Part shown: positions 1 through 57,850 of the stretch, piece after piece | How the letters are laid out: each line of letters begins with the position of its first letter | How positions within the stretch are numbered: position 1 is the stretch's first letter | Source: a virus | Taxonomy: Duplodnaviria; Caudoviricetes | Direction: 5' to 3' (one strand) | Length of the DNA: 57,850 bases | Virus record (IMG/VR): IMGVR_UViG_3300025655_000041 | Coordinates: 1-57,850 of that record | Notes under the pieces: model-generated | Seen by the model: only the letters and a program-made list of their open reading frames with translations | The model's database searches: none | What the model was told of the DNA's origin: nothing | Position numbers and translations under genes: made by a program

Positions 1-126
1 TACCCTTCGCTCGAGCTACCGCTACGCGTTTGAAGCTTTGTTTGTTGCATTGTTTCGCGGTTGGCGTTAAGCTTCCTTCCACTGGCGTCCGTGTGTTTTC
101 CCTTCACACGGGCGTCTTTTTTTTTT
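1..126. repeat. Terminal overlap identical to 57723-57848 (circular contig)
   Basis: Direct comparison. It starts inside an ORF and the T-run is 10 nt here versus 12 nt at the end, so it is probably an assembly overlap rather than the biological DTR. Confidence 0.92.
84..126 (+). terminator. Intrinsic terminator after the A-depleted first gene (copy at 57806-57850)
   Basis: Stem GGCGTCCGTGTG / CACACGGGCGTC followed by a 10-12 nt T run. Confidence 0.85.
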
Positions 127-194
127 GAATTATCCTTGTGGGTAGCTCTGTGGTTCTCCTCCCTTACACGTTGAGCTATCCTCAAGGACAATTC
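127..194 (+). promoter_or_regulatory. Long imperfect stem-loop, copy 1 (RNase III-site-like early leader)
   Basis: GAATTatCCTTgtGGGTAGC...GCTATCCtcAAGGacAATTC, matched by a second copy at 630-681. Confidence 0.6.
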
Positions 195-232
195 TGTCCT
201 ACAACGCTCACAGAGCAGAAAGGGTTTGCTTC

Positions 233-628
233 ATGGCTAACTCAAACACATTGACTTTTACTAATCTCCCAACTGTATCGGAGTTTGTTCCAACCAATGT
301 CTTCATCGGAGATCAACCAACGAAGATTGTTTGGCGTAATCGGCTTGGAGCTGTAAAGATTGTGGATGCTGGCTACGAAGACAGAGACAAAACAATACTT
401 GTTATTGTTCTTGACTCAGGGGTTCGTTATAAGTGCAAGGCAGCTACCTTTGCTAGAAGCGAATTTCCACAGTCTTTTATTAGCGCTATTACTACGCTTA
501 AGGCTTCTGGACAAGAAGTAGAATTATGTGTAGCTATTAGTCCTAGAACTGGTAAAGCTAAAGAAGGATTCTTTTGTGGATTCCGTCTTCCGCTTCCTAA
601 ATCAGATACAGGTCTGATTAGCCTGTAA
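233..628 (+). CDS. Early hypothetical protein
   Basis: 131 aa ORF with AAAGGG RBS. Confidence 0.8.
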   Translation: MANSNTLTFTNLPTVSEFVPTNVFIGDQPTKIVWRNRLGAVKIVDAGYEDRDKTILVIVLDSGVRYKCKAATFARSEFPQSFISAITTLKASGQEVELCVAISPRTGKAKEGFFCGFRLPLPKSDTGLISL

Positions 629-3507: not shown

Positions 3508-3873
3508 ATGATCGTATCATGGAAAAACATAAACACTACTGAAGTAAAAGTAAACGTACAACGTAGAGAGGTATACGAAGAAACTTTTTCTATAACATTC
3601 CTATTCGATGCTCTATCAGACGCTAGCTGGACAATTGAAGAACACGACAATGACAGCGTTACTCTCTCTACTAAAGACGCTGCAGCTATCCGTCATGCAC
3701 TCGAGGTCATGGAGTACACTGAGAGTGACACTATTACTGTATCGCTCAATGGTGACCGTGTTGAAGCTGAGGTCTCTATTATCAATGAACAAAGCAGAAT
3801 GTTGTTCTACCTAGACCTTGAAGTGTACGATATGGAGCTTATAGAAGACGAAACTACTATGGAACTCATATAA
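3508..3873 (+). CDS. Acidic hypothetical protein
   Basis: AAAGGA RBS. Confidence 0.75.
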   Translation: MIVSWKNINTTEVKVNVQRREVYEETFSITFLFDALSDASWTIEEHDNDSVTLSTKDAAAIRHALEVMEYTESDTITVSLNGDRVEAEVSIINEQSRMLFYLDLEVYDMELIEDETTMELI

Positions 3874-3891
3874 AACACCCTTATAGGGGGG
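3871..3891 (+). promoter_or_regulatory. Putative phage RNAP promoter (middle)
   Basis: TAAAACACCCTTATAGGGGGG; the motif recurs at 7993, 35269 and 57305. Confidence 0.6.
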
Positions 3892-6644: not shown

Positions 6645-6915
6645 GTTACAGACTGCAATTGATTATTGGTCTGTAGTCGCCGTCAGACAAGACGGCATAC
6701 CACCTAATGAACACATCCACTATAATAAACTAGTGGGTGTAATAAAAGACTTGAAAGACTACATCATTGAACAAGAAAGGTATAGTGATGAAGAACTTTG
6801 TATATCTAGCGGGTCCAATGGAGGACTGCACGGAACGGAGAATGACAGCATGGAGACTTCTAGCAGCGGAGAAGCTGAAGAAGAACGATATCAATTCTCT
6901 CGATCCAACGCGTAG
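6526..6915 (+). CDS. Hypothetical protein (start probably a TTG just after the AAGGAGG near 6594-6600)
   Basis: Strong internal RBS; overlaps both neighbours. Confidence 0.45.
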   Translation: MTMLSSLLVKMSMNCYTATYSIQRRLSTLLRLSLQPTITELQTAIDYWSVVAVRQDGIPPNEHIHYNKLVGVIKDLKDYIIEQERYSDEELCISSGSNGGLHGTENDSMETSSSGEAEEERYQFSRSNA

Positions 6916-7222
6916 AGTTTCTTTCCATGATGAGTTATATCTTGGTGAGAAGCACAAGCCTGTTCAGTCTACCTGTAGACGTATATTCAAAATGGATATG
7001 CAGGATATCGCTAATAGCAATGTCGTATTAGCAGATATTAGACGTGATAGTGGAAGAGGCACTGGAACAGCAATGGAACTTATGTTTGCCCATATGAAGA
7101 ACAAGATCATTATCCTATGGGCAGATGAAGATGACCTCATTCATCCCTTCTACGAGAGCATCTACACAGAAAAATACTTTGAGCTAGATGATTGTCTTGA
7201 GGCAATCACTTATTATTATTGA
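6788..7222 (+). CDS. Nucleoside 2-deoxyribosyltransferase / nucleotide N-glycosidase family protein
   Basis: VYLAGPM...WR...LDP...D..DIANSNVVL...GTAMEL motif set. Confidence 0.8.
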   Translation: MKNFVYLAGPMEDCTERRMTAWRLLAAEKLKKNDINSLDPTRRVSFHDELYLGEKHKPVQSTCRRIFKMDMQDIANSNVVLADIRRDSGRGTGTAMELMFAHMKNKIIILWADEDDLIHPFYESIYTEKYFELDDCLEAITYYY

Positions 7223-10197: not shown

Positions 10198-10883
10198 TGT
10201 TAGCAATAGTAGACACTGACAGCTGCATTTATCAAGCAGCTTGGCAGCAAGAGTCTGTCGAATCAGCGTTAAGTAATTATAAACATTTAATAAATCAGAA
10301 CTGGATAACACCAGTTTGGGCTGATGAACACGTTGCTTATTGCGGAGGTAAAGATAACTTTCGCCATAAGCTTTGCCCTAACTATAAGGCTAATCGTAAG
10401 GATCCACCGGATGACGCTAAGTTCTTTCGTCCACTGATGGAGCGCATTATCGAAGAAGGCCTAGCTATACCAGCAGATGGTATGGAGGCTGACGACATGG
10501 TACGTATCAAAGCTACTGAGTGTGCATCACTCAACATAGACTTTACTATAGTCCATATCGATAAAGATCTTGATTGTATTCCAGGGAAACATTACAATCC
10601 CCACAAGGAGGCTTTCTATGAGATTGATGTTGACGCAGCTGATCTGTTTTATTGGACTCAAATGCTGAAGGGTGATCCAACCGATAACCTTCCAGGGATA
10701 CCTAAAGTAGGACCAAAGAAAGCAGAGAAGATGCTTAAGGGTGTACCGCTAGGTAGACGTAAACATAGAGTATTTGCTGCATACAGAGCTAAATACGGTC
10801 GAGTTGACTGGAAAGAAAAGCTATTGGAGACAGCAAACGGTATTCATATTCTAAGGAGTCATAATGACTACTTCTCGATTTAA
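10194..10883 (+). CDS. 5'-3' exonuclease / RNase H (T7 gp6-like)
   Basis: NFR..L...YKANR, EADD, DKDL, GDPTDNLPGIPKVGPKKA. Confidence 0.92.
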   Translation: MMLAIVDTDSCIYQAAWQQESVESALSNYKHLINQNWITPVWADEHVAYCGGKDNFRHKLCPNYKANRKDPPDDAKFFRPLMERIIEEGLAIPADGMEADDMVRIKATECASLNIDFTIVHIDKDLDCIPGKHYNPHKEAFYEIDVDAADLFYWTQMLKGDPTDNLPGIPKVGPKKAEKMLKGVPLGRRKHRVFAAYRAKYGRVDWKEKLLETANGIHILRSHNDYFSI

Positions 10884-11499
10884 CAACCATGAACGTTGGC
10901 ATAACGTACAGGTTGAACGTGTTACTCAGTTCGATAGTAACGACTGGTGTGGCATTATCACAAAAGAACACGGTGAAATACGGTGTAAGCGTAGAAATAA
11001 GAAACGCTTTAAGCTAAAGAAAGGATTTAAAGGTCCAATCACTGTTTTCTTTTATCAAGGTAAGACACCAACGATTGCTGACGATCCTCGTGGTCACATT
11101 GAAGTAGAAAGTCATTGGAATATTCTTAATCCAGAAGTCTTTGATGAGTCACATCATGGCTTTCTTTATATCATCACAGATAAACGTAATGATAAACGCT
11201 ATATCGGCGTTAAAACACTGCATACTAGTTGGAAGGGCTATACTAGTTCTTCCTCAGAACTCAACGAAGAAATAACTAAAGCAGGTAAAGAGAACTTTAC
11301 TTTCAATATCTTGTTCTCTTGCCCAATGAAAGGTGATCTTAGTTATATGGAAGCTTATATGATTATGATTACACATGCCCTATGCTCTGATGAGTGGTAT
11401 AATAAATGGGTGCATGAAATTAGGTTTAAACCCGCAATGAAGGACATGGAGAGACAAATTGAAATCGCCAAAGACTATTCGCAACCCTTACCACAATGA
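10864..11499 (+). CDS. GIY-YIG (Seg-like) endonuclease domain protein with an extra N-terminal region
   Basis: GFLYIITDKRNDKRYIGVK...WKGYTSSS...E...WYN. Confidence 0.65.
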   Translation: MTTSRFNNHERWHNVQVERVTQFDSNDWCGIITKEHGEIRCKRRNKKRFKLKKGFKGPITVFFYQGKTPTIADDPRGHIEVESHWNILNPEVFDESHHGFLYIITDKRNDKRYIGVKTLHTSWKGYTSSSSELNEEITKAGKENFTFNILFSCPMKGDLSYMEAYMIMITHALCSDEWYNKWVHEIRFKPAMKDMERQIEIAKDYSQPLPQ

Positions 11500-13631: not shown

Positions 13632-13728
13632 GAGTAAGGATTACTTCCTTCTTAAACCACGCAAACAAAAAACTTTCACAGGAAAGAAATATGCAGAACG
13701 TAAAAAGTATCGAGGACAAGGTCGATAA
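13612..13728 (+). CDS. Small basic protein ending KKYRGQGR (38 aa)
   Basis: GAGGA RBS; C-terminal YRGQG motif that I recall from a widespread small phage protein. Confidence 0.75.
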   Translation: MAKKADKSKDYFLLKPRKQKTFTGKKYAERKKYRGQGR

Positions 13729-13747
13729 CAACAAAGGTTTTATTACC

Positions 13748-14182
13748 ATGACAACCAAGGAAGAACGATATGATACACTCTATATGGACATCGCTAAACG
13801 CGTTGCTGAAATGTCTTATGACATCGATACACAAGTTGGCGCAGTCATCGTCAAAGATGGCAACATTATCTCAATGGGCTGGAACGGTACTCCAAGCGGC
13901 TTTGACAATAGCTGTAAACACCCTGAAACGGGTATTACTTTATCTACTGTTATTCATGCTGAAGCTAACGCAATCTGTAAGCTCGCTCGTGCTAGCGGTT
14001 CTGGATTGGGTTCCACACTGTACACTACGCTCTCACCTTGTATCGAGTGTACTAAGCTTATCCTCCAATCTGGTATCAGCGAAGTTGTCGTTGAGAAAGC
14101 GTATGAGAAAGATCTAGAAGGATTTAAAATTCTTAATGAGAAAGGTATGCTAAGGGTATGCAAATCCATTACCAAAGAATAG
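13748..14182 (+). CDS. dCMP deaminase
   Basis: VGAVIV, GWNG, HAEANAI and SPCIEC zinc-deaminase motifs. Confidence 0.92.
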   Translation: MTTKEERYDTLYMDIAKRVAEMSYDIDTQVGAVIVKDGNIISMGWNGTPSGFDNSCKHPETGITLSTVIHAEANAICKLARASGSGLGSTLYTTLSPCIECTKLILQSGISEVVVEKAYEKDLEGFKILNEKGMLRVCKSITKE

Positions 14183-16824: not shown

Positions 16825-19800
16825 TTAGTTATATTGGTAAATTACTTTTGAAATGAGCTTCCAGATTTTACTTTTTAAAGACTCATTTGCTTTATGCCGT
16901 TGTTCTAAATCTGAAATAATTAGCTTCTGAGCTGCAATATCGCTGATAAGACCTTCGTAAGCTTGCATAGAAATTTCACCCCCTTCAGGACGCCATCCAG
17001 CTTTAATAGCTCTATCTAATAGCTTTTGTGCTGGACCTCTTAAGTTTACTTTAGGTACAGCCTTACGCCCTTCTGTTGTTTCGAACTCAGCGGTAAGCTG
17101 GTCTAACCCTTGGCTTAGCATTACTAAATGATCGTGCAATGCTCGATACTCACTCTCATAGTTTACCGCAATTTTCATTCCAGGATTACGTGCAGCTTTA
17201 GCTCGCATACTTGCCATTGCCGCTTTAAGCCCATCGGTTATTGCTTTAGAAATAGAGTAATTCATATTCACTTGTTTGAATTGATTATTTATTTCTCGAT
17301 GGTAAGCCTTAACACTAGTTGCATCGGTAATAATTGCGTCATGTACCGGCATAACAAATGCTGCGCCTTCCTTACGTACTCTTGCCATGTCATTTACTTT
17401 CATAATAGTATTAGCCATTACTGCAGCATCTATTTGTTGGACTGTAAGAACAGGTAATTGATTAGCCACAAGTTGTCCGAATCTAGATCTATCGGCTAAA
17501 CGATACTTGCCTGTTTCAGGATCAAACACTCGCATCCTAGTACGTTTACCCGCGCTACCAGTAGCTCTAGCTTCTGTCATCTCTAAGTTAACAATACCTT
17601 CTTCTGTTTGAATAGGAATAGTTCTTCCTGTTCTAAAGTGTTCATTAGTTCCCATATAAATAGTTGTACCTAACGGACCCACTAACTCAGGAACCACACC
17701 TAGCATTGCCCATAGTTTACCTGCGTTTTTATACAACTGTTGTTGTTGTAGGTTAAGAATAGTAAGGCCTTGTCCAATTACGTTATTAAGATCGCTAATG
17801 CGATCCATTCTAGAGTAGTCAGAAAGGTTTTCATGTCGTGCAATTACTTTAGCAATAATGTCTTTACCTGCGTCATCAATAAACTCCTGTGCGGTTTCCA
17901 TATGGAATCTAGCTGGCATACCGTATGATGTTTCCATCAATGGAACTTTAGATAATGCTTTAACCATATCGCTGCGTTGGTCTGCTGGTAACTCATAAAT
18001 TTCAGTTAATACTTCTGACCAAAAGTTTTGCTTATCGGGGTTATGTGCAAAAGGAATACCTATTTGCTTCATAGCGGTATCTAAGAATTTATCACGAATA
18101 TCTCCTTGTGATAAAATATTTCCTTCGTCGCCAAAAATAACACCAACTCTTTTCATATCATCAGTATCACCATTTTGCAACGCTTGAATTGCAATACCGT
18201 TTTGCTTTCCATCATGTTGAACTTGTGCTTTAAGTTCTAATGAATTTAGTCCTTTAGTTTTTGCATCATGCCAATTAGCAAAGTCAATAAACGCTTGTAG
18301 CTTATAACCCCAATCATCATTCTTCTTAAGGGAGGATTGATGTAGTCTACCTGCATTTGTAGCTTGATTAAATGTATTCATATCCCCAGACTTAACTGCA
18401 GCTCGCAATGCCTGCCCTTGACGTAACCATGTTTGATATACCGGATCATTTGGATTTGACATAATTGATTTAGTAATATCAATTATATTATTCCAACCCA
18501 TGTCTTCTGTACGAAGACCATTAGTTGGGTTGTAGTTATTATCTAAATCTGGGTCTAATAAATTTTTACCAATTATATAAGTCCAATTTTCCATAATCTG
18601 TTTAGTAATTTTATCACCGGACTTTATATTAACTAAAACTTTTTTAGCACTGCCAACAATATTTCTTACTAACTTGTCTGTTTGGTAGTTAAGCACTGTA
18701 TTACGAACAAAGTAACGACCTACAGAGCTAGCGTGCATATATTTATTGTAATATACTTTACCTTGGTTAGCAGTTGCGTCATTCATTGTGCGTATTATCT
18801 TTCGGGCTTGCATACGCATTACTTTATTAGCTTGATCTTGAGCGTCTACTTCTCTTCCTTCACCAAATCTTTTCTTAGCATTAGAATATGCTTCTAACCA
18901 TTTAGCTTCATGTAGACCTAATGTTTTTGCCCACTTATTATTGCTAAAAAACAGGCCGCCTGGAGCTGCATTTATTAACGTAATACGATCTGCTTCCCCC
19001 GGACCAGCAGGTTCTAATTGAATTACTGAAGCGACAATCATTTTAGCATAAGCAAAACGATCGTCATCAACTCGCATAGGTATAGTAGAAAGCCTTAACT
19101 TTACCGCATCTTCAAAAGCAGTATTTTTAGATGTTTTATTTCGTTTAGAAAGAGGCTTAGCTTTTTCGCCTAGCTCTCGTTCACGCCCTGGAAATTGATT
19201 TACTGCAGGTGGCAAGTAAGCAACGTTAACTCGGCGATCCGGCTGGATATCTTCTAAGATGCCTCTGTTTGCTCTAAAGAAAGCTTCCCCTTCTTCAGTT
19301 AGAACTAGTCGTTCATCTTTTAAATCTGTATTAGGATCATTAGCATTCAAATCAATTGCTTGAAATAGATTTTGTTCTGGTGTTGTAAACATATCATAGA
19401 TTAAGACATCTAGTGCTGCCTTAACATCTGGATCTAATGCTGCACCAGCACCGCCATATCCCATTCTAATATTTGGATCACCCATTTCATTTGGATTAGG
19501 GAGAAGTTTATCTGCTAAAGAAGAAGCCATGCGTTCGCGAATAAGTTCAGGGTCAAAAATACCATCGCCTGCAGCTTGTTCGTCTCTCATAGAAGAAACA
19601 TCTAGTGACTCATCAGTCTTGTTAAATACATCTGCTGCAGTTTCTAAGAAAGTAATTGCTAATGCATTTCCTACACGGTCAGTCATACGACCAGAAGTTT
19701 GATCAAATAATTGTGTTGAAGCTAAAAACCCTTGAACCTTGCGAGACACAGGATCGTCTGCCATAAGCATTGGCGAAATTCGTTTACTTAAAGTATCATT

Positions 19801-20367
19801 AATAAACGAACCTCTAGCAATTATATTACCATAAACATCACGACCTTGTTGTGCTTGAGGTATTGTTGAACGCATTTCATCTGCACTCTGTGCAGCATAT
19901 GTTTCTGTTGTAGCACGAGTTGCTCTTTCAGTTTGACTTTTTATTTCTGATTCTATTTGCTTATTAATAAAGGCAGGATCGTTTGAGAAAGGAGTAGTCG
20001 CCATTGGTTGAAGATCAAAGCCTTCTGGCGCTTCTTCCCCTGGAGTTTCATCTAGTGCATCTGCAGTAGTAGCAACAATACTCGGATCAAATGCACCCGC
20101 TTCAATTAATGATTGTGTTAGCGGATCAAATGACTCTTCAGCTTTTACTCTTGCTTCTGCTGTTTCAGAAGTTTCGGTACTGCCTGGAGGTAACGCTTGA
20201 ATACGTGGCTCCTCACCTAAAGGTTGAGCAATATAATCCGGACGGGCTGCTTGATCTTTCTTTGAGAGTAAATCTAATGCCTGTTCGTCTTGCACTATTT
20301 TTCTAAATTCATCTTCTTGTGCTTCTCTTGCAATCTCAGCAGGAGTTTTTTTAAATGTTAGTTTCAT
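16825..20367 (-). CDS. Second, divergent single-subunit RNA polymerase; putative virion-encapsidated RNAP
   Basis: SSVGRYF..LNYQTDK (DxxGR-like), motif A QHDGKQNG, GDIR, motif B LSKVPLMETSYG, PVLTVQQIDA, motif C VHDA, all in canonical order; follows the internal virion genes. Confidence 0.82.
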   Translation of the reverse strand: MKLTFKKTPAEIAREAQEDEFRKIVQDEQALDLLSKKDQAARPDYIAQPLGEEPRIQALPPGSTETSETAEARVKAEESFDPLTQSLIEAGAFDPSIVATTADALDETPGEEAPEGFDLQPMATTPFSNDPAFINKQIESEIKSQTERATRATTETYAAQSADEMRSTIPQAQQGRDVYGNIIARGSFINDTLSKRISPMLMADDPVSRKVQGFLASTQLFDQTSGRMTDRVGNALAITFLETAADVFNKTDESLDVSSMRDEQAAGDGIFDPELIRERMASSLADKLLPNPNEMGDPNIRMGYGGAGAALDPDVKAALDVLIYDMFTTPEQNLFQAIDLNANDPNTDLKDERLVLTEEGEAFFRANRGILEDIQPDRRVNVAYLPPAVNQFPGRERELGEKAKPLSKRNKTSKNTAFEDAVKLRLSTIPMRVDDDRFAYAKMIVASVIQLEPAGPGEADRITLINAAPGGLFFSNNKWAKTLGLHEAKWLEAYSNAKKRFGEGREVDAQDQANKVMRMQARKIIRTMNDATANQGKVYYNKYMHASSVGRYFVRNTVLNYQTDKLVRNIVGSAKKVLVNIKSGDKITKQIMENWTYIIGKNLLDPDLDNNYNPTNGLRTEDMGWNNIIDITKSIMSNPNDPVYQTWLRQGQALRAAVKSGDMNTFNQATNAGRLHQSSLKKNDDWGYKLQAFIDFANWHDAKTKGLNSLELKAQVQHDGKQNGIAIQALQNGDTDDMKRVGVIFGDEGNILSQGDIRDKFLDTAMKQIGIPFAHNPDKQNFWSEVLTEIYELPADQRSDMVKALSKVPLMETSYGMPARFHMETAQEFIDDAGKDIIAKVIARHENLSDYSRMDRISDLNNVIGQGLTILNLQQQQLYKNAGKLWAMLGVVPELVGPLGTTIYMGTNEHFRTGRTIPIQTEEGIVNLEMTEARATGSAGKRTRMRVFDPETGKYRLADRSRFGQLVANQLPVLTVQQIDAAVMANTIMKVNDMARVRKEGAAFVMPVHDAIITDATSVKAYHREINNQFKQVNMNYSISKAITDGLKAAMASMRAKAARNPGMKIAVNYESEYRALHDHLVMLSQGLDQLTAEFETTEGRKAVPKVNLRGPAQKLLDRAIKAGWRPEGGEISMQAYEGLISDIAAQKLIISDLEQRHKANESLKSKIWKLISKVIYQYN

Positions 20368-54552: not shown

Positions 54553-54567
54553 TTACCGCTCCTGGGT

Positions 54568-54843
54568 TTACCACTTAACTTTATTAGCCCAATAAGCTGC
54601 ACTCATTGGACCTTTTTTAATATTTGTTGCATGGCGAGCCTTCCAGCCCTGCCTACGCTTACGATAGCTTTCGCTTTCGCCTTGTTTCTTTGGACTTCCA
54701 GATACACCTTGAGAACCAAATCTAATTAGCTTTTCTTTACCGCCACTACGAGCTAAAACTGCATGAGACTTGGTAGGGTGGCTAGGGGTTCTTTTAGGTT
54801 TATTGTAACCACTGAAGGTTTCATTACCTTTTTCTATTGTCAT
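54568..54843 (-). CDS. Conserved basic phage protein (DUF6321-like)
   Basis: GYNKPKRTP.HPTKSH.V...KLIRFG.QG...ARH...SAAYWA. Confidence 0.75.
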   Translation of the reverse strand: MTIEKGNETFSGYNKPKRTPSHPTKSHAVLARSGGKEKLIRFGSQGVSGSPKKQGESESYRKRRQGWKARHATNIKKGPMSAAYWANKVKW

Positions 54844-57304: not shown

Positions 57305-57325
57305 TCTCCTATAAGGGGGTGTTTA
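57305..57325 (-). promoter_or_regulatory. Putative phage late promoter driving the structural arm
   Basis: Minus strand TAAACACCCCCTTATAGGAGA, ending about 20 nt before the TerL start. Confidence 0.6.
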
Positions 57326-57468
57326 GGTCCAAAGTGGTACTAATGGTTTTTCTTTGTGTCTAAAAAAGATGTAAGTGTGGTTTGGGTTCCCCCGTCTGCT
57401 TTCGGGTCCCCCCCTGTTTCTCTGTGCGTGTCGGGCGCTTTCCCGTCTTTGCTGCTGTGGAGGCTGCT

Positions 57469-57792
57469 ATGTCTTTTCTTTCTTTTGCTTACCGCCCGCT
57501 TCTTTGGGCTTGTGTTCTCTCTGGTCGTGTTGGCTCTGTTCCCGACGGTAACTGGGTTCTTGCTTGGGACTTGTTTGGTGATCGTTGGTCTTCTTTGCCT
57601 TGTATCGACTTTCCTTATGGGCCTGTAACTGTTCGTGGTTTGTCTTTGCGTCAAAGGCTTGCCTTGTGGTCTTTTCTTCTTGATCACTTGCTGCCCAATG
57701 GTTGTTATGAGCTTTCTTGGTCTACCCTTCGCTCGAGCTACCGCTACGCGTTTGAAGCTTTGTTTGTTGCATTGTTTCGCGGTTGGCGTTAA
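57469..57792 (+). CDS. A-depleted, lysine-free first early protein (107 aa)
   Basis: GGAGG RBS plus ATG, then a strong terminator; MSFLSFAYRPLLW...FRGWR. Confidence 0.65.
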   Translation: MSFLSFAYRPLLWACVLSGRVGSVPDGNWVLAWDLFGDRWSSLPCIDFPYGPVTVRGLSLRQRLALWSFLLDHLLPNGCYELSWSTLRSSYRYAFEALFVALFRGWR

Positions 57793-57848
57793 GCTTCCTT
57801 CCACTGGCGTCCGTGTGTTTTCCCTTCACACGGGCGTCTTTTTTTTTT
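57723..57848. repeat. Copy of bases 1-126
   Basis: Direct comparison. Confidence 0.92.
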
Positions 57849-57850
57849 TT

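Follow-up and report, generated by a model that had tools for sequence, protein, structure and literature searches.

Adenine depletion across the probable first early transcription unit of CRP-7-type marine podoviruses

Introduction

Why would a bacteriophage write a transcription unit, from leader to terminator, almost without adenine? The question is raised by one end of IMG/VR record IMGVR_UViG_3300025655_000041, a complete virus record of 57,850 bp that was analysed as a whole and is called the window here. An initial annotation had drawn attention to positions 57375–57850, describing an almost A-free leader followed by a gene for a lysine-free protein at the probable first-injected end of the DNA, and had proposed that this region is under strong selection. 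We have re-measured the depletion, followed it through related phages and weighed the explanations that could account for it. The region is very likely the first early transcription unit of a marine podovirus of the CRP-7 type, lying between a unique promoter-like motif and the first intrinsic terminator and diverging from the TerL late operon, and the contents of this unit are nearly A-free in the sense strand across the clade.

Results

The sense strand of the unit is almost free of adenine

The + strand at 57375–57850 contains 34 A, 120 C, 122 G and 200 T in 476 nt. Adenine thus makes up 7.1% of the bases, and thymine, at 42%, is the most enriched. Windows of 476 nt have a mean of 136 A (standard deviation 21.7), and every non-overlapping window elsewhere holds at least 90. 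The two longest A-free runs of the window, 86 nt starting at 57375 and 53 nt starting at 57492, compare with 30 nt for the third longest anywhere. The first two A residues are at 57461, inside the GGAGG ribosome-binding site (57459–57463), and at 57469, in the ATG start codon, and the + strand genes downstream have 28–44% A. The recount and the sliding-window comparison therefore agree with the initial annotation on the 86-nt A-free stretch, the overall level of about 7%, the placing of the first A residues and the A-rich early genes that follow; the depletion is correctly described and is far beyond chance.

The near absence of A spans the leader, the ribosome-binding site, the start codon, the coding sequence and the terminator stem. 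It sets in just after an A-rich promoter-like motif and ends at the T-run of the terminator; the ∼75 nt between TerL and the unit are of ordinary composition. Within the 107-aa gene, excluding the stop codon, the three codon positions hold 8, 16 and 4 A residues respectively. Third-position A is 3.7%, compared with 27.3% in the other + strand genes and 30.9% in the − strand genes. The proposal of strong selection on the region stands in the form of directional selection against A, conserved in relatives as described below. Among the dinucleotides formed by the residual A residues, AT has the lowest odds ratio (0.56). A 154-aa open reading frame (ORF) on the − strand (57340–57804) is open only since this T-free strand holds no stop codon; the strand also has no ATG, GTG or TTG, and a − strand gene in the unit was rejected.

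The depleted region is laid out as a transcription unit

Reading rightwards, the order is promoter-like motif, A-free leader, 107-aa gene, terminator, intergenic element and then the gene at 233–628 (Table 1). The early promoter-like element consists of a T-rich block followed by AAAAAAGATGT (57347–57372), for which this is the single match in the window at up to two mismatches, and its AAAAA(A)GATGT portion is near-invariant in the aligned relatives. The 17-nt motif upstream of TerL is a different element, with two matches in the window at up to three mismatches (57306–57322 and, on the + strand, 3873–3889) against 0.10 expected. In relatives it is likewise conserved ahead of TerL, and it probably resembles promoters of the T7 class.

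The leader has conserved motifs of its own, and in most relatives a further A, besides that in GGAGG, is conserved within GGGTACCC at ∼19 nt from the leader start. RNAalifold applied to 45 leaders found no consensus RNA structure; folded singly, the leaders had a mean z-score of −0.75, with 12 of the 45 below −1.5. A scan against Rfam returned only chance-level matches (19.4 and 16.4 bits against cut-offs of 60 and 55.5).

At the other end, the hairpin has the features of an intrinsic terminator: a 12-bp stem of −21.1 kcal/mol (z −7.78; none of 200 shuffled sequences folded as well) followed by T12. The same architecture of hairpin and T-run closes the unit in relatives, and in the sequences of the window and its relatives the terminator stems use T–G pairs where A–T pairs would do. 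Blocks like that at 127–232 follow the early terminators in four relatives (L023, L027, L035 and L044, judged by eye) and contain a repeated TCCTCGTGGG-like word and an GGTTTCCTCCCT-like word resembling an anti-Shine-Dalgarno sequence. Such a block may be a second promoter or a regulatory site.

RNA contigs from three metatranscriptome runs (X15–X17) cover TerL and portal, and none lies at 57374–57850. All the runs consisted of contigs, which are uninformative on the expression, starts and ends of the unit.

Relatives share the depletion

All 12 loci that encode a homologue of the 107-aa protein (family 1) are A-poor, with 5.6–10.5% A over the match; the rest of those contigs has 16–31% A, or else the whole of a short contig is A-poor. 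At the distant family 1 loci (37–44% identity) the A-poor tract extends over 1.05–1.64 kb at 4.0–4.7% A, and the leaders before the gene are 654–1008 nt long with 2.1–2.8% A.

We also compared loci through the neighbouring TerL gene. From 143 confirmed loci 80 were kept, of which 19 were then dropped because the TerL N-terminus was incomplete or the upstream flank was short (the longest of these, in L093, being ∼209 nt). The 61 with a usable upstream flank comprised 57 distinct loci after removal of four duplicates. An A-poor domain of at least 80 nt is present in 52 of the 57; it reaches at least 300 nt in 24 and at least 800 nt in three. The domain begins 55–110 nt from the TerL ATG, or ∼260–376 nt from it in a group at 64% identity. 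The other five loci have no such domain or one shorter than 80 nt, and two of these five have flanks of only ∼300 nt.

The phage CRP-7, which is in culture together with its host strain, has A-free runs of 224, 168 and 104 nt at 57384–57896. The A-less stretch that the initial annotation had proposed to look for in related genomes is thus present at the family 1 loci, at most of the TerL loci and in an isolate. Among outgroups, no A-free region was seen in DSS3_VP1, pelagiphage Kolga, MW202692 or the first 3 kb of N4. The last of these is ordinary, at 19–44% A per 100 nt, and the idea of an N4-wide trait was rejected. A blastn search of the A-poor region against 50,697 phage records gave no match.

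The 107-aa protein bears the marks of the depletion

The window and its relative L003 differ at 22, 14 and 36 sites in the first, second and third codon positions of the 107-aa gene. Synonymous and non-synonymous codon changes number 26 and 24 in frame, compared with 11 and 41, and 7 and 45, in the two shifted frames. The family 1 gene is therefore real, with a synonymous excess in its own frame only. Six metagenomic homologues at 70–83% identity all lack lysine, and a profile search adds distant members, including a 179-aa protein of ordinary composition.

An AlphaFold (AF2) model of the 107-aa protein has a mean predicted local distance difference test score (pLDDT) of 89.2 and a predicted template modelling score (pTM) of 0.80. 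The protein had no match in Pfam or PHROGs, no fold match in the PDB or BFVD at E ≤0.001 and no usable match in Atlas. It is net basic (D5 E2 R10 K0); an Ocr-type DNA-mimic anti-restriction protein was rejected on this composition and the lack of a PDB or BFVD fold match at that threshold.

That the ORF is lysine-free and closed by a strong terminator, as initially described, is correct. Along with the absence of lysine, the other residues that require A in their codons (N, I, M, T, Q and E) are low, and those with A-less codons (L, S, R, W and F) are enriched. The non-coding leaders are even more A-free (1–3% A) and synonymous sites are purged, so the loss of lysine is a by-product. For the same reason we do not follow the suggestion that the region avoids tRNA-Lys-cleaving defences of the PrrC type.

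The depletion follows position, not protein

Family 1 occupies the first unit in only three of the 57 loci: the window, L071 and, weakly, L026. In other relatives the slot holds something else or appears to hold no gene. Units of 85–139 nt in seven loci appear to have no ORF; the T-run rule used to delimit units missed many terminators, and the short units alone were used. In L022, where TerL is 98% identical to that of the window, the unit consists of the motif, ∼50 nt of conserved leader and a terminator, with A-rich genes directly after it.

The clearest comparison comes from a second protein family. In the window its member (family 2) is the gene of normal composition at 233–628, the first after the terminator. 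The A-poor ORF of CRP-7 (record positions 57608–57994) is homologous to this gene (BLASTP E 3e-6, 25% identity over 110 residues; jackhmmer agrees), and in CRP-7 and many relatives A-free family 2 members sit inside the first unit. Fourteen members that lie 10–372 nt from the motif with no terminator between have 0.2–6.8% A, and 0–0.8% A at third codon positions. In contrast, members located after the first terminator or after the first gene have 17.7–28.6% A (L061, L071, L072, L076, L007, L009, the window and L075). The depletion rule therefore tracks position, not protein.

At the extreme, family 2 ORFs in L035, L027 and L043 are restricted to ten residue types (A, C, F, G, L, P, R, S, V and W). 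L035 and L027 differ at 11, 6 and 36 sites by codon position, with 31 synonymous and 12 non-synonymous codon changes in frame against 6 and 39, and 3 and 41, out of frame. With synonymous codon changes outnumbering non-synonymous ones 2–3-fold, these ORFs are real genes under purifying selection and hence natural reduced-alphabet proteins. The most extreme units have no ATG, use GTG or TTG starts and G-only Shine-Dalgarno-like sequences, and keep nearly all of their A in the stop codon.

The annotated CRP-7 gene gp72 lies on the T-free strand of the A-poor unit (L001:141–836, +, corresponding to MK613349 57271–57966), and the family 2 ORF lies on the opposite strand. The gp72 call is probably spurious, since the T-free strand holds neither an ATG, GTG or TTG nor a stop codon.

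These comparisons bear on whether the depletion has a function at all. It might reflect a local mutational bias, through transcription-associated strand asymmetry, or an artefact of assembly or sequencing, and an excess of T over A on the coding strand is indeed in the known direction of transcription-linked skew. However, levels of 0.2–3% A are far beyond known skews, the boundaries are sharp, conserved functional positions retain their A and homologues only a few hundred nucleotides further on have 18–29% A. A cultured isolate and over 50 independent contigs also share the feature, which disposes of the assembly artefact that the initial annotation had allowed for. An origin without function is thus hardly credible.

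The phage appears to belong to the CRP-7-type group

The closest TerL among phages is that of Roseobacter phage CRP-7, with 62% identity over 96% of the query; no other phage record exceeds 60%. The DNA polymerases (DNAPs) of the two phages are 35% identical, the genomes are of similar size (58.1 kb for CRP-7 and 57.9 kb for the window), the operon layouts match, and in both the first early gene is preceded by an A-free unit. The nearest relatives by TerL and DNAP are CRP-7, pelagiphage Kolga and the DSS3 phages. Judged by hallmark-gene similarity and gene order, the phage appears to belong to the CRP-7-type roseophage group (Zhang et al. 2019, PMC6918029). Membership of the Schitoviridae was rejected, given an RNA polymerase (RNAP) of 1180 aa rather than ∼3500 aa and TerL and DNAP relatives that are not N4-like.

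The + strand carries the early and replication genes: two gp2.5-like single-stranded DNA-binding proteins (SSBs), a family A DNAP, a 5′–3′ exonuclease, a GIY-YIG endonuclease, a primase-helicase, a dCMP deaminase and a T7-type RNAP. The endonuclease gene is SegE-like (10864–11499, +), lies between the exonuclease and primase-helicase genes and has a counterpart in DSS3_VP1. The − strand carries TerL, portal, structural, lysis and ribonucleotide reductase (RNR) genes and, last, genes for an 888-aa transglycosylase protein and proteins of 1432 and 1180 aa.

Positions 1–126 duplicate 57723–57848 with 100% identity, so the last 126 nt of the A-poor unit, up to the T-run, form an assembly overlap. 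DNA contig 8 of the public run X1 bridges the window end and runs on for 2720 letters beyond it. Because of this repeat and the bridging contig, the window must be taken to stop at an assembly junction within a T homopolymer and not at a demonstrated physical end.

Two other features of the assemblies were observed. The contigs of ten of the 80 relatives stop at scattered points 10–85 nt upstream of the TerL start (L019, L024, L034, L037, L039, L055, L056, L073, L074 and L078); these ends look like assembly breaks bordering a hypervariable slot, not one fixed end. At 54566–54615 many contigs of four runs match over only ∼35 nt, with both flanks diverging, and the depth in run X1 is 100 compared with ∼20. 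This segment encodes the C-terminal ...MSAAYWANKVKW of a basic 91-aa protein (54568–54843, −), a motif that seems common to many different phages.

A second RNA polymerase lies among the structural genes

The window encodes two single-subunit RNAPs, as the initial annotation supposed: the PF00940 enzyme in the early/middle operon and the 1180-aa protein, recognised by its fold. The latter matches a PHROG virion RNAP family (E 4.4e-6). Its AF2 model, from an alignment of 30 sequences, has a pLDDT of 80.9 and a pTM of 0.80, and the best PDB matches of this model in Foldseek are single-subunit RNAPs, with E values of 1e-17 to 1e-13: yeast mitochondrial RNAP (8c5u, E 1.6e-17), T7 RNAP (3e2e, E 1.8e-14) and N4 mini-vRNAP (3c3l, E 1.8e-14). 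Sequence searches of the protein against the PDB gave nothing or spurious short matches to AVR3a, and a profile search gave no sequence match to N4 vRNAP there. The invariant D719, K...YG (807–816) and HD (1009–1010) probably resemble polymerase motifs A, B and C. Metagenomes contain 41 homologues of 1153–1438 aa, and the putative counterpart in CRP-7, judged by position and size, is gp33.

The gene adjoins those for the 1432-aa protein, which has a virion-structural PHROG match, and the 888-aa protein with a transglycosylase domain. A single-subunit RNAP is thus encoded among virion or ejection genes, as in the N4 scheme. The segment 16825–27391 (−), in which the RNAP stands alone and the 1432-aa and 888-aa proteins are separate, resembles the giant N4 vRNAP in a compact form that has been split up.

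The likeness to N4 extends to the layout. Early and middle genes point rightward and late genes leftward, the late set closes with an RNAP gene, another RNAP, of T7 type, is encoded among the earlier genes, and the early region starts with a dedicated promoter. The differences are an RNAP of 1180 aa instead of ∼3500 aa with separate 1432-aa and 888-aa proteins, TerL and DNAP that are not N4-like, and the undepleted left 3 kb of N4. Nor was an N4-type DNA hairpin promoter (5–7-bp stem, 3-nt loop) recognised; a conserved motif and, in most relatives, the GGGTACCC palindrome are present, with no consensus fold. A position of the unit at the first-injected end, as initially supposed, is plausible from the N4-like gene order only; the end of the window is an assembly overlap.

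This arrangement suggests an explanation in terms of RNA synthesis. If a virion RNAP reads the first unit on DNA that has only just entered and whose end is topologically free, host SSB would bind the T-rich, A-free non-template strand and its RNA well and the A-rich, T-free template poorly. Alternatively, fewer ATP-requiring steps would help the polymerase to open the duplex, shed its RNA and reel in DNA. SSBs bind dT with a preference far above that for dA. In N4, the first 500 bp enter and transcription by vRNAP then brings in the genome, and SSB melts the non-template strand and binds the exiting RNA, vRNAP having no RNA-separation domain (PMC4496689; entry and the role of SSB are also described in PMC13434306).

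Such a synthesis constraint would be in line with the second RNAP in the structural operon, the N4-like gene order and the N4 precedent (PMC4496689), and it would explain the ORF-less units of 85–139 nt, the unique promoter, the T enrichment (42%) and the restriction to the first unit. The strict, ATP-free form of the near ATP independence proposed in the initial annotation is refuted by the A residues conserved in the leader, in GGGTACCC at about +19 and in GGAGG; the weaker, polymerase-level form survives as a rival. Against the latter, one A in 65 nt should hardly alter SSB binding and yet proteins are recoded, N4 is undepleted, the A-rich early genes downstream must also be transcribed from incoming DNA and the 1180-aa RNAP is a candidate virion protein only. 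We consider a constraint on synthesis by an injected polymerase unlikely, although it ranks second among the explanations.

DNA damage and restriction account poorly for the pattern

The depletion leaves the template strand T-free, which could spare the first round of transcription from T-directed damage such as uracil excision, if the DNA contains deoxyuridine (dU), ultraviolet (UV) dimers, ADP-ribosylation of T or encounters with hypermodified T. The cost would be incurred per T and would be strand-specific. The replication module (DNAP, primase-helicase, exonuclease, SSB-like protein, dCMP deaminase, RNAP and RNR) is shared at 24–44% identity with DSS3_VP1, a phage whose DNA contains dU (PMC8323127). 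The dCMP deaminase gene (13691–14182, +) and an ORF of the nucleoside 2-deoxyribosyltransferase family (6767–7222, +; PF05014, 35.1 bits) also count in favour, as does the failure to find a thymidylate synthase among the 49 ORFs scanned. The DNA chemistry of the phage group is worth checking in its own right, given the deaminase, the PF05014 ORF, the missing thymidylate synthase and the module in common with DSS3_VP1.

However, DSS3_VP1 itself lacks any A-free or T-free region, and a search for a counterpart of its proposed dTTP-removing enzyme found none. No deaminase is listed in the record of CRP-7, although that phage has the strongest depletion. On these sequence grounds dU is not supported, and no evidence was found for the modified template base suggested in the initial annotation. 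UV avoidance was rejected, as the GG odds ratio of 1.08 means that CC dimers in the template are not avoided. The promoter-like motif, moreover, puts ∼8 T on the template strand, and with contents of the slot that vary there is no conserved inhibitor gene. Protection of a T-free template is quite improbable.

The initial annotation had also proposed that an A-free strand shields the entering DNA from restriction. The sequence logic is sound: such a strand carries no A/T palindromes, type I sites (which need an A on each strand), inverted type III pairs or sigma-70 −10 elements. Palindromes of 4 bp occur at 29/kb in the unit and 55/kb elsewhere, and in the 52 A-poor segments GC-only palindromic tetramers are at 0.47–0.76 of expectation and hexamers number 0–3 against a mean of 9.3. 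However, GC palindromes are avoided genome-wide too (0.36–0.84), and 6-bp palindromes are nearly as frequent in the unit as elsewhere (10.5/kb and 12.8/kb). A single A seldom creates a site, so shielding cannot purge every A from ORF-less units of 85–140 nt or recode proteins. The ordinary composition of the gap between TerL and the unit, and the nature of the window end as an assembly junction, also count against this proposal, which we do not favour and regard as very improbable. Separately, the genome as a whole and 286 kb of flanking sequence from relatives contain GGCC, CCGG and CGCG at 0.36–0.62 of the Markov-2 expectation, a general palindrome avoidance.

Table 1. Positions of the features discussed (window coordinates unless a locus is named)
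Feature	Position	Strand	Remarks
TerL promoter-like motif, 17 nt	57306–57322	−	20–36 nt upstream of TerL ATG (57286); heads leftward late operon
Early promoter-like element (T-rich block, A6-GA, TGT)	57347–57377	+	Directly 5′ of A-free zone; genome-unique
A-free leader	57375–57468	+	1 A in 94 nt (in GGAGG)
Leader motif 1	57384–57393	+	GGGTTCCCCC here; GGGTACCC in most relatives
Leader motif 2 (C-run motif)	57404–57420	+	Conserved in leader alignment
107-aa protein gene, family 1	57469–57792	+	No Lys; small family
Intrinsic-terminator-like hairpin and T12	57806–57850	+	57806–57817 pairs with 57827–57838; unit end
Second copy of 57723–57848	1–126	+	Assembly overlap
Intergenic element after terminator	127–232	+	CCTCCC-containing motif at 152–164; one exact copy in window
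Gene for 131-aa protein, 28% A	233–628	+	First gene after terminator; family 2 member of normal composition
T7-type RNA polymerase, 712 aa	14360–16498	+	Pfam RNA_pol PF00940, E 2.6e-55; end of rightward early/middle operon
Single-subunit RNA polymerase, 1180 aa, candidate virion RNAP	16825–20367	−	Last gene of leftward structural operon
ORFs with ten residue types, ∼100–140 residues	L035:1663–2082; L027:4465–4884; L043:2080–2508	−	Family 2

Discussion

The depletion is confined to the sense strand, extends over the whole unit and starts beyond an A-rich motif; the constraint therefore lies on the transcript, its synthesis or its template, and not on the protein or on double-stranded sites. We formulate this as an 'adenine-free entry transcript' rule, a proposition that could equally well hold or fail: everything between the single early promoter and the first terminator would be recoded to U, G and C, including whole proteins made of A, C, F, G, L, P, R, S, V and W that fold and work, as A in the first RNA or T in its template would be a liability at entry. 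An abundant marine phage group conserves the rule, even at the expense of protein sequence, start codons and ribosome-binding sites, so the underlying cost must be large.

Our tentative preference, with a probability of about 0.35, is for a constraint at the level of RNA, in which the A-less first transcript escapes A-dependent cleavage. For the first transcripts there would be one incoming genome to serve as template and probably no more than a few injected molecules of polymerase to read it. RNA without A would offer no targets to A-dependent endoribonucleases, for which the candidates are the AU-preferring RNase E of a Rhodobacterales host and A-specific RNases, either toxins or of the HEPN type. 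Given also its G/C-rich 5′ end, strong Shine-Dalgarno sequence and strong 3′ hairpin, every one of the scarce early transcripts would last and be translated, and later genes, transcribed in bulk, would have no need to lack A. An A-rich promoter-like motif is in keeping with a constraint that bears on the product and not on the DNA. Sites of Rhodobacter RNase E are described as AU-enriched (PMC6238624), and this enrichment, with AT the lowest of the residual-A dinucleotides, supports the RNA-cleavage reading.

Several points weigh against cleavage as the cause. The unit is uncovered in the RNA contigs of the three runs, which is evidence neither way, and its start site is a prediction. ORF-less units run straight into A-rich early genes, as in L022; A-containing early mRNAs are thus not lethal and any benefit of lacking A is quantitative. 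RNase E has no strict need for A, and the host is not known to have an A-specific nuclease. The left end of N4 is not depleted. Finally, a constraint on RNA synthesis or a T-free template would fit the same data.

In some respects the unit recalls the first-entering genes of other phages. Like gene 0.3 (ocr) of T7 and the first-step-transfer genes of T5, it is short, separately terminated and hypervariable in gene content even among close relatives, and hypervariable content of a first unit is typical of arms-race genes. Unlike the T7 and T5 regions, which are not known to be depleted of any base, the window unit encodes a basic protein with no fold match in the PDB or BFVD, and the units of some relatives appear to be gene-less. 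The dU roseophages DSS3_VP1 and DSS3_PM1 (Naomviridae) resemble the window phage in the shared replication module and marine Roseobacter hosts but differ in having siphovirus structural genes and, for DSS3_VP1, in lacking a base-free region.

Outside phages, there are precedents for gaining RNase immunity or nucleoside triphosphate independence by removing a nucleotide or a motif: mRNAs stripped of ACA escape MazF in the single-protein-production system, and cassettes lacking G or U serve in vitro. These engineered cases involve a single motif or a short stretch, whereas the phage unit is natural, conserved and 0.1–1.7 kb long, lacks a whole base and has proteins recoded to ten residue types. 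The nearest natural analogue among the texts consulted is ALREX, the adenine-depleted signal-sequence coding regions of eukaryotic mRNAs for which a role at the RNA level has been proposed (PMC2100149). It is likewise a natural 5′ coding region with few A residues, but is eukaryotic, tens of nucleotides long and concerned with hydrophobic signal peptides and nuclear export. A literature search of full texts, with passages of the CRP-7 paper, found no report of a natural transcription unit that excludes a whole nucleotide.

The unit flags a probable mis-annotation in CRP-7 (gp72), and base-free runs could help to locate where the early region begins in genomes of uncultured phages. Ten-letter proteins under purifying selection, beside homologues that use the full alphabet, are of interest for protein evolution and design. 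More broadly, the unit gives a handle on the least understood minutes of infection, that is, on what the incoming DNA and the first RNA face. If the adenine-free rule is true, it would point either to a so far unrecognised barrier in marine bacteria, of A-directed RNA immunity or decay, or to a new working mode of injected single-subunit RNAPs.

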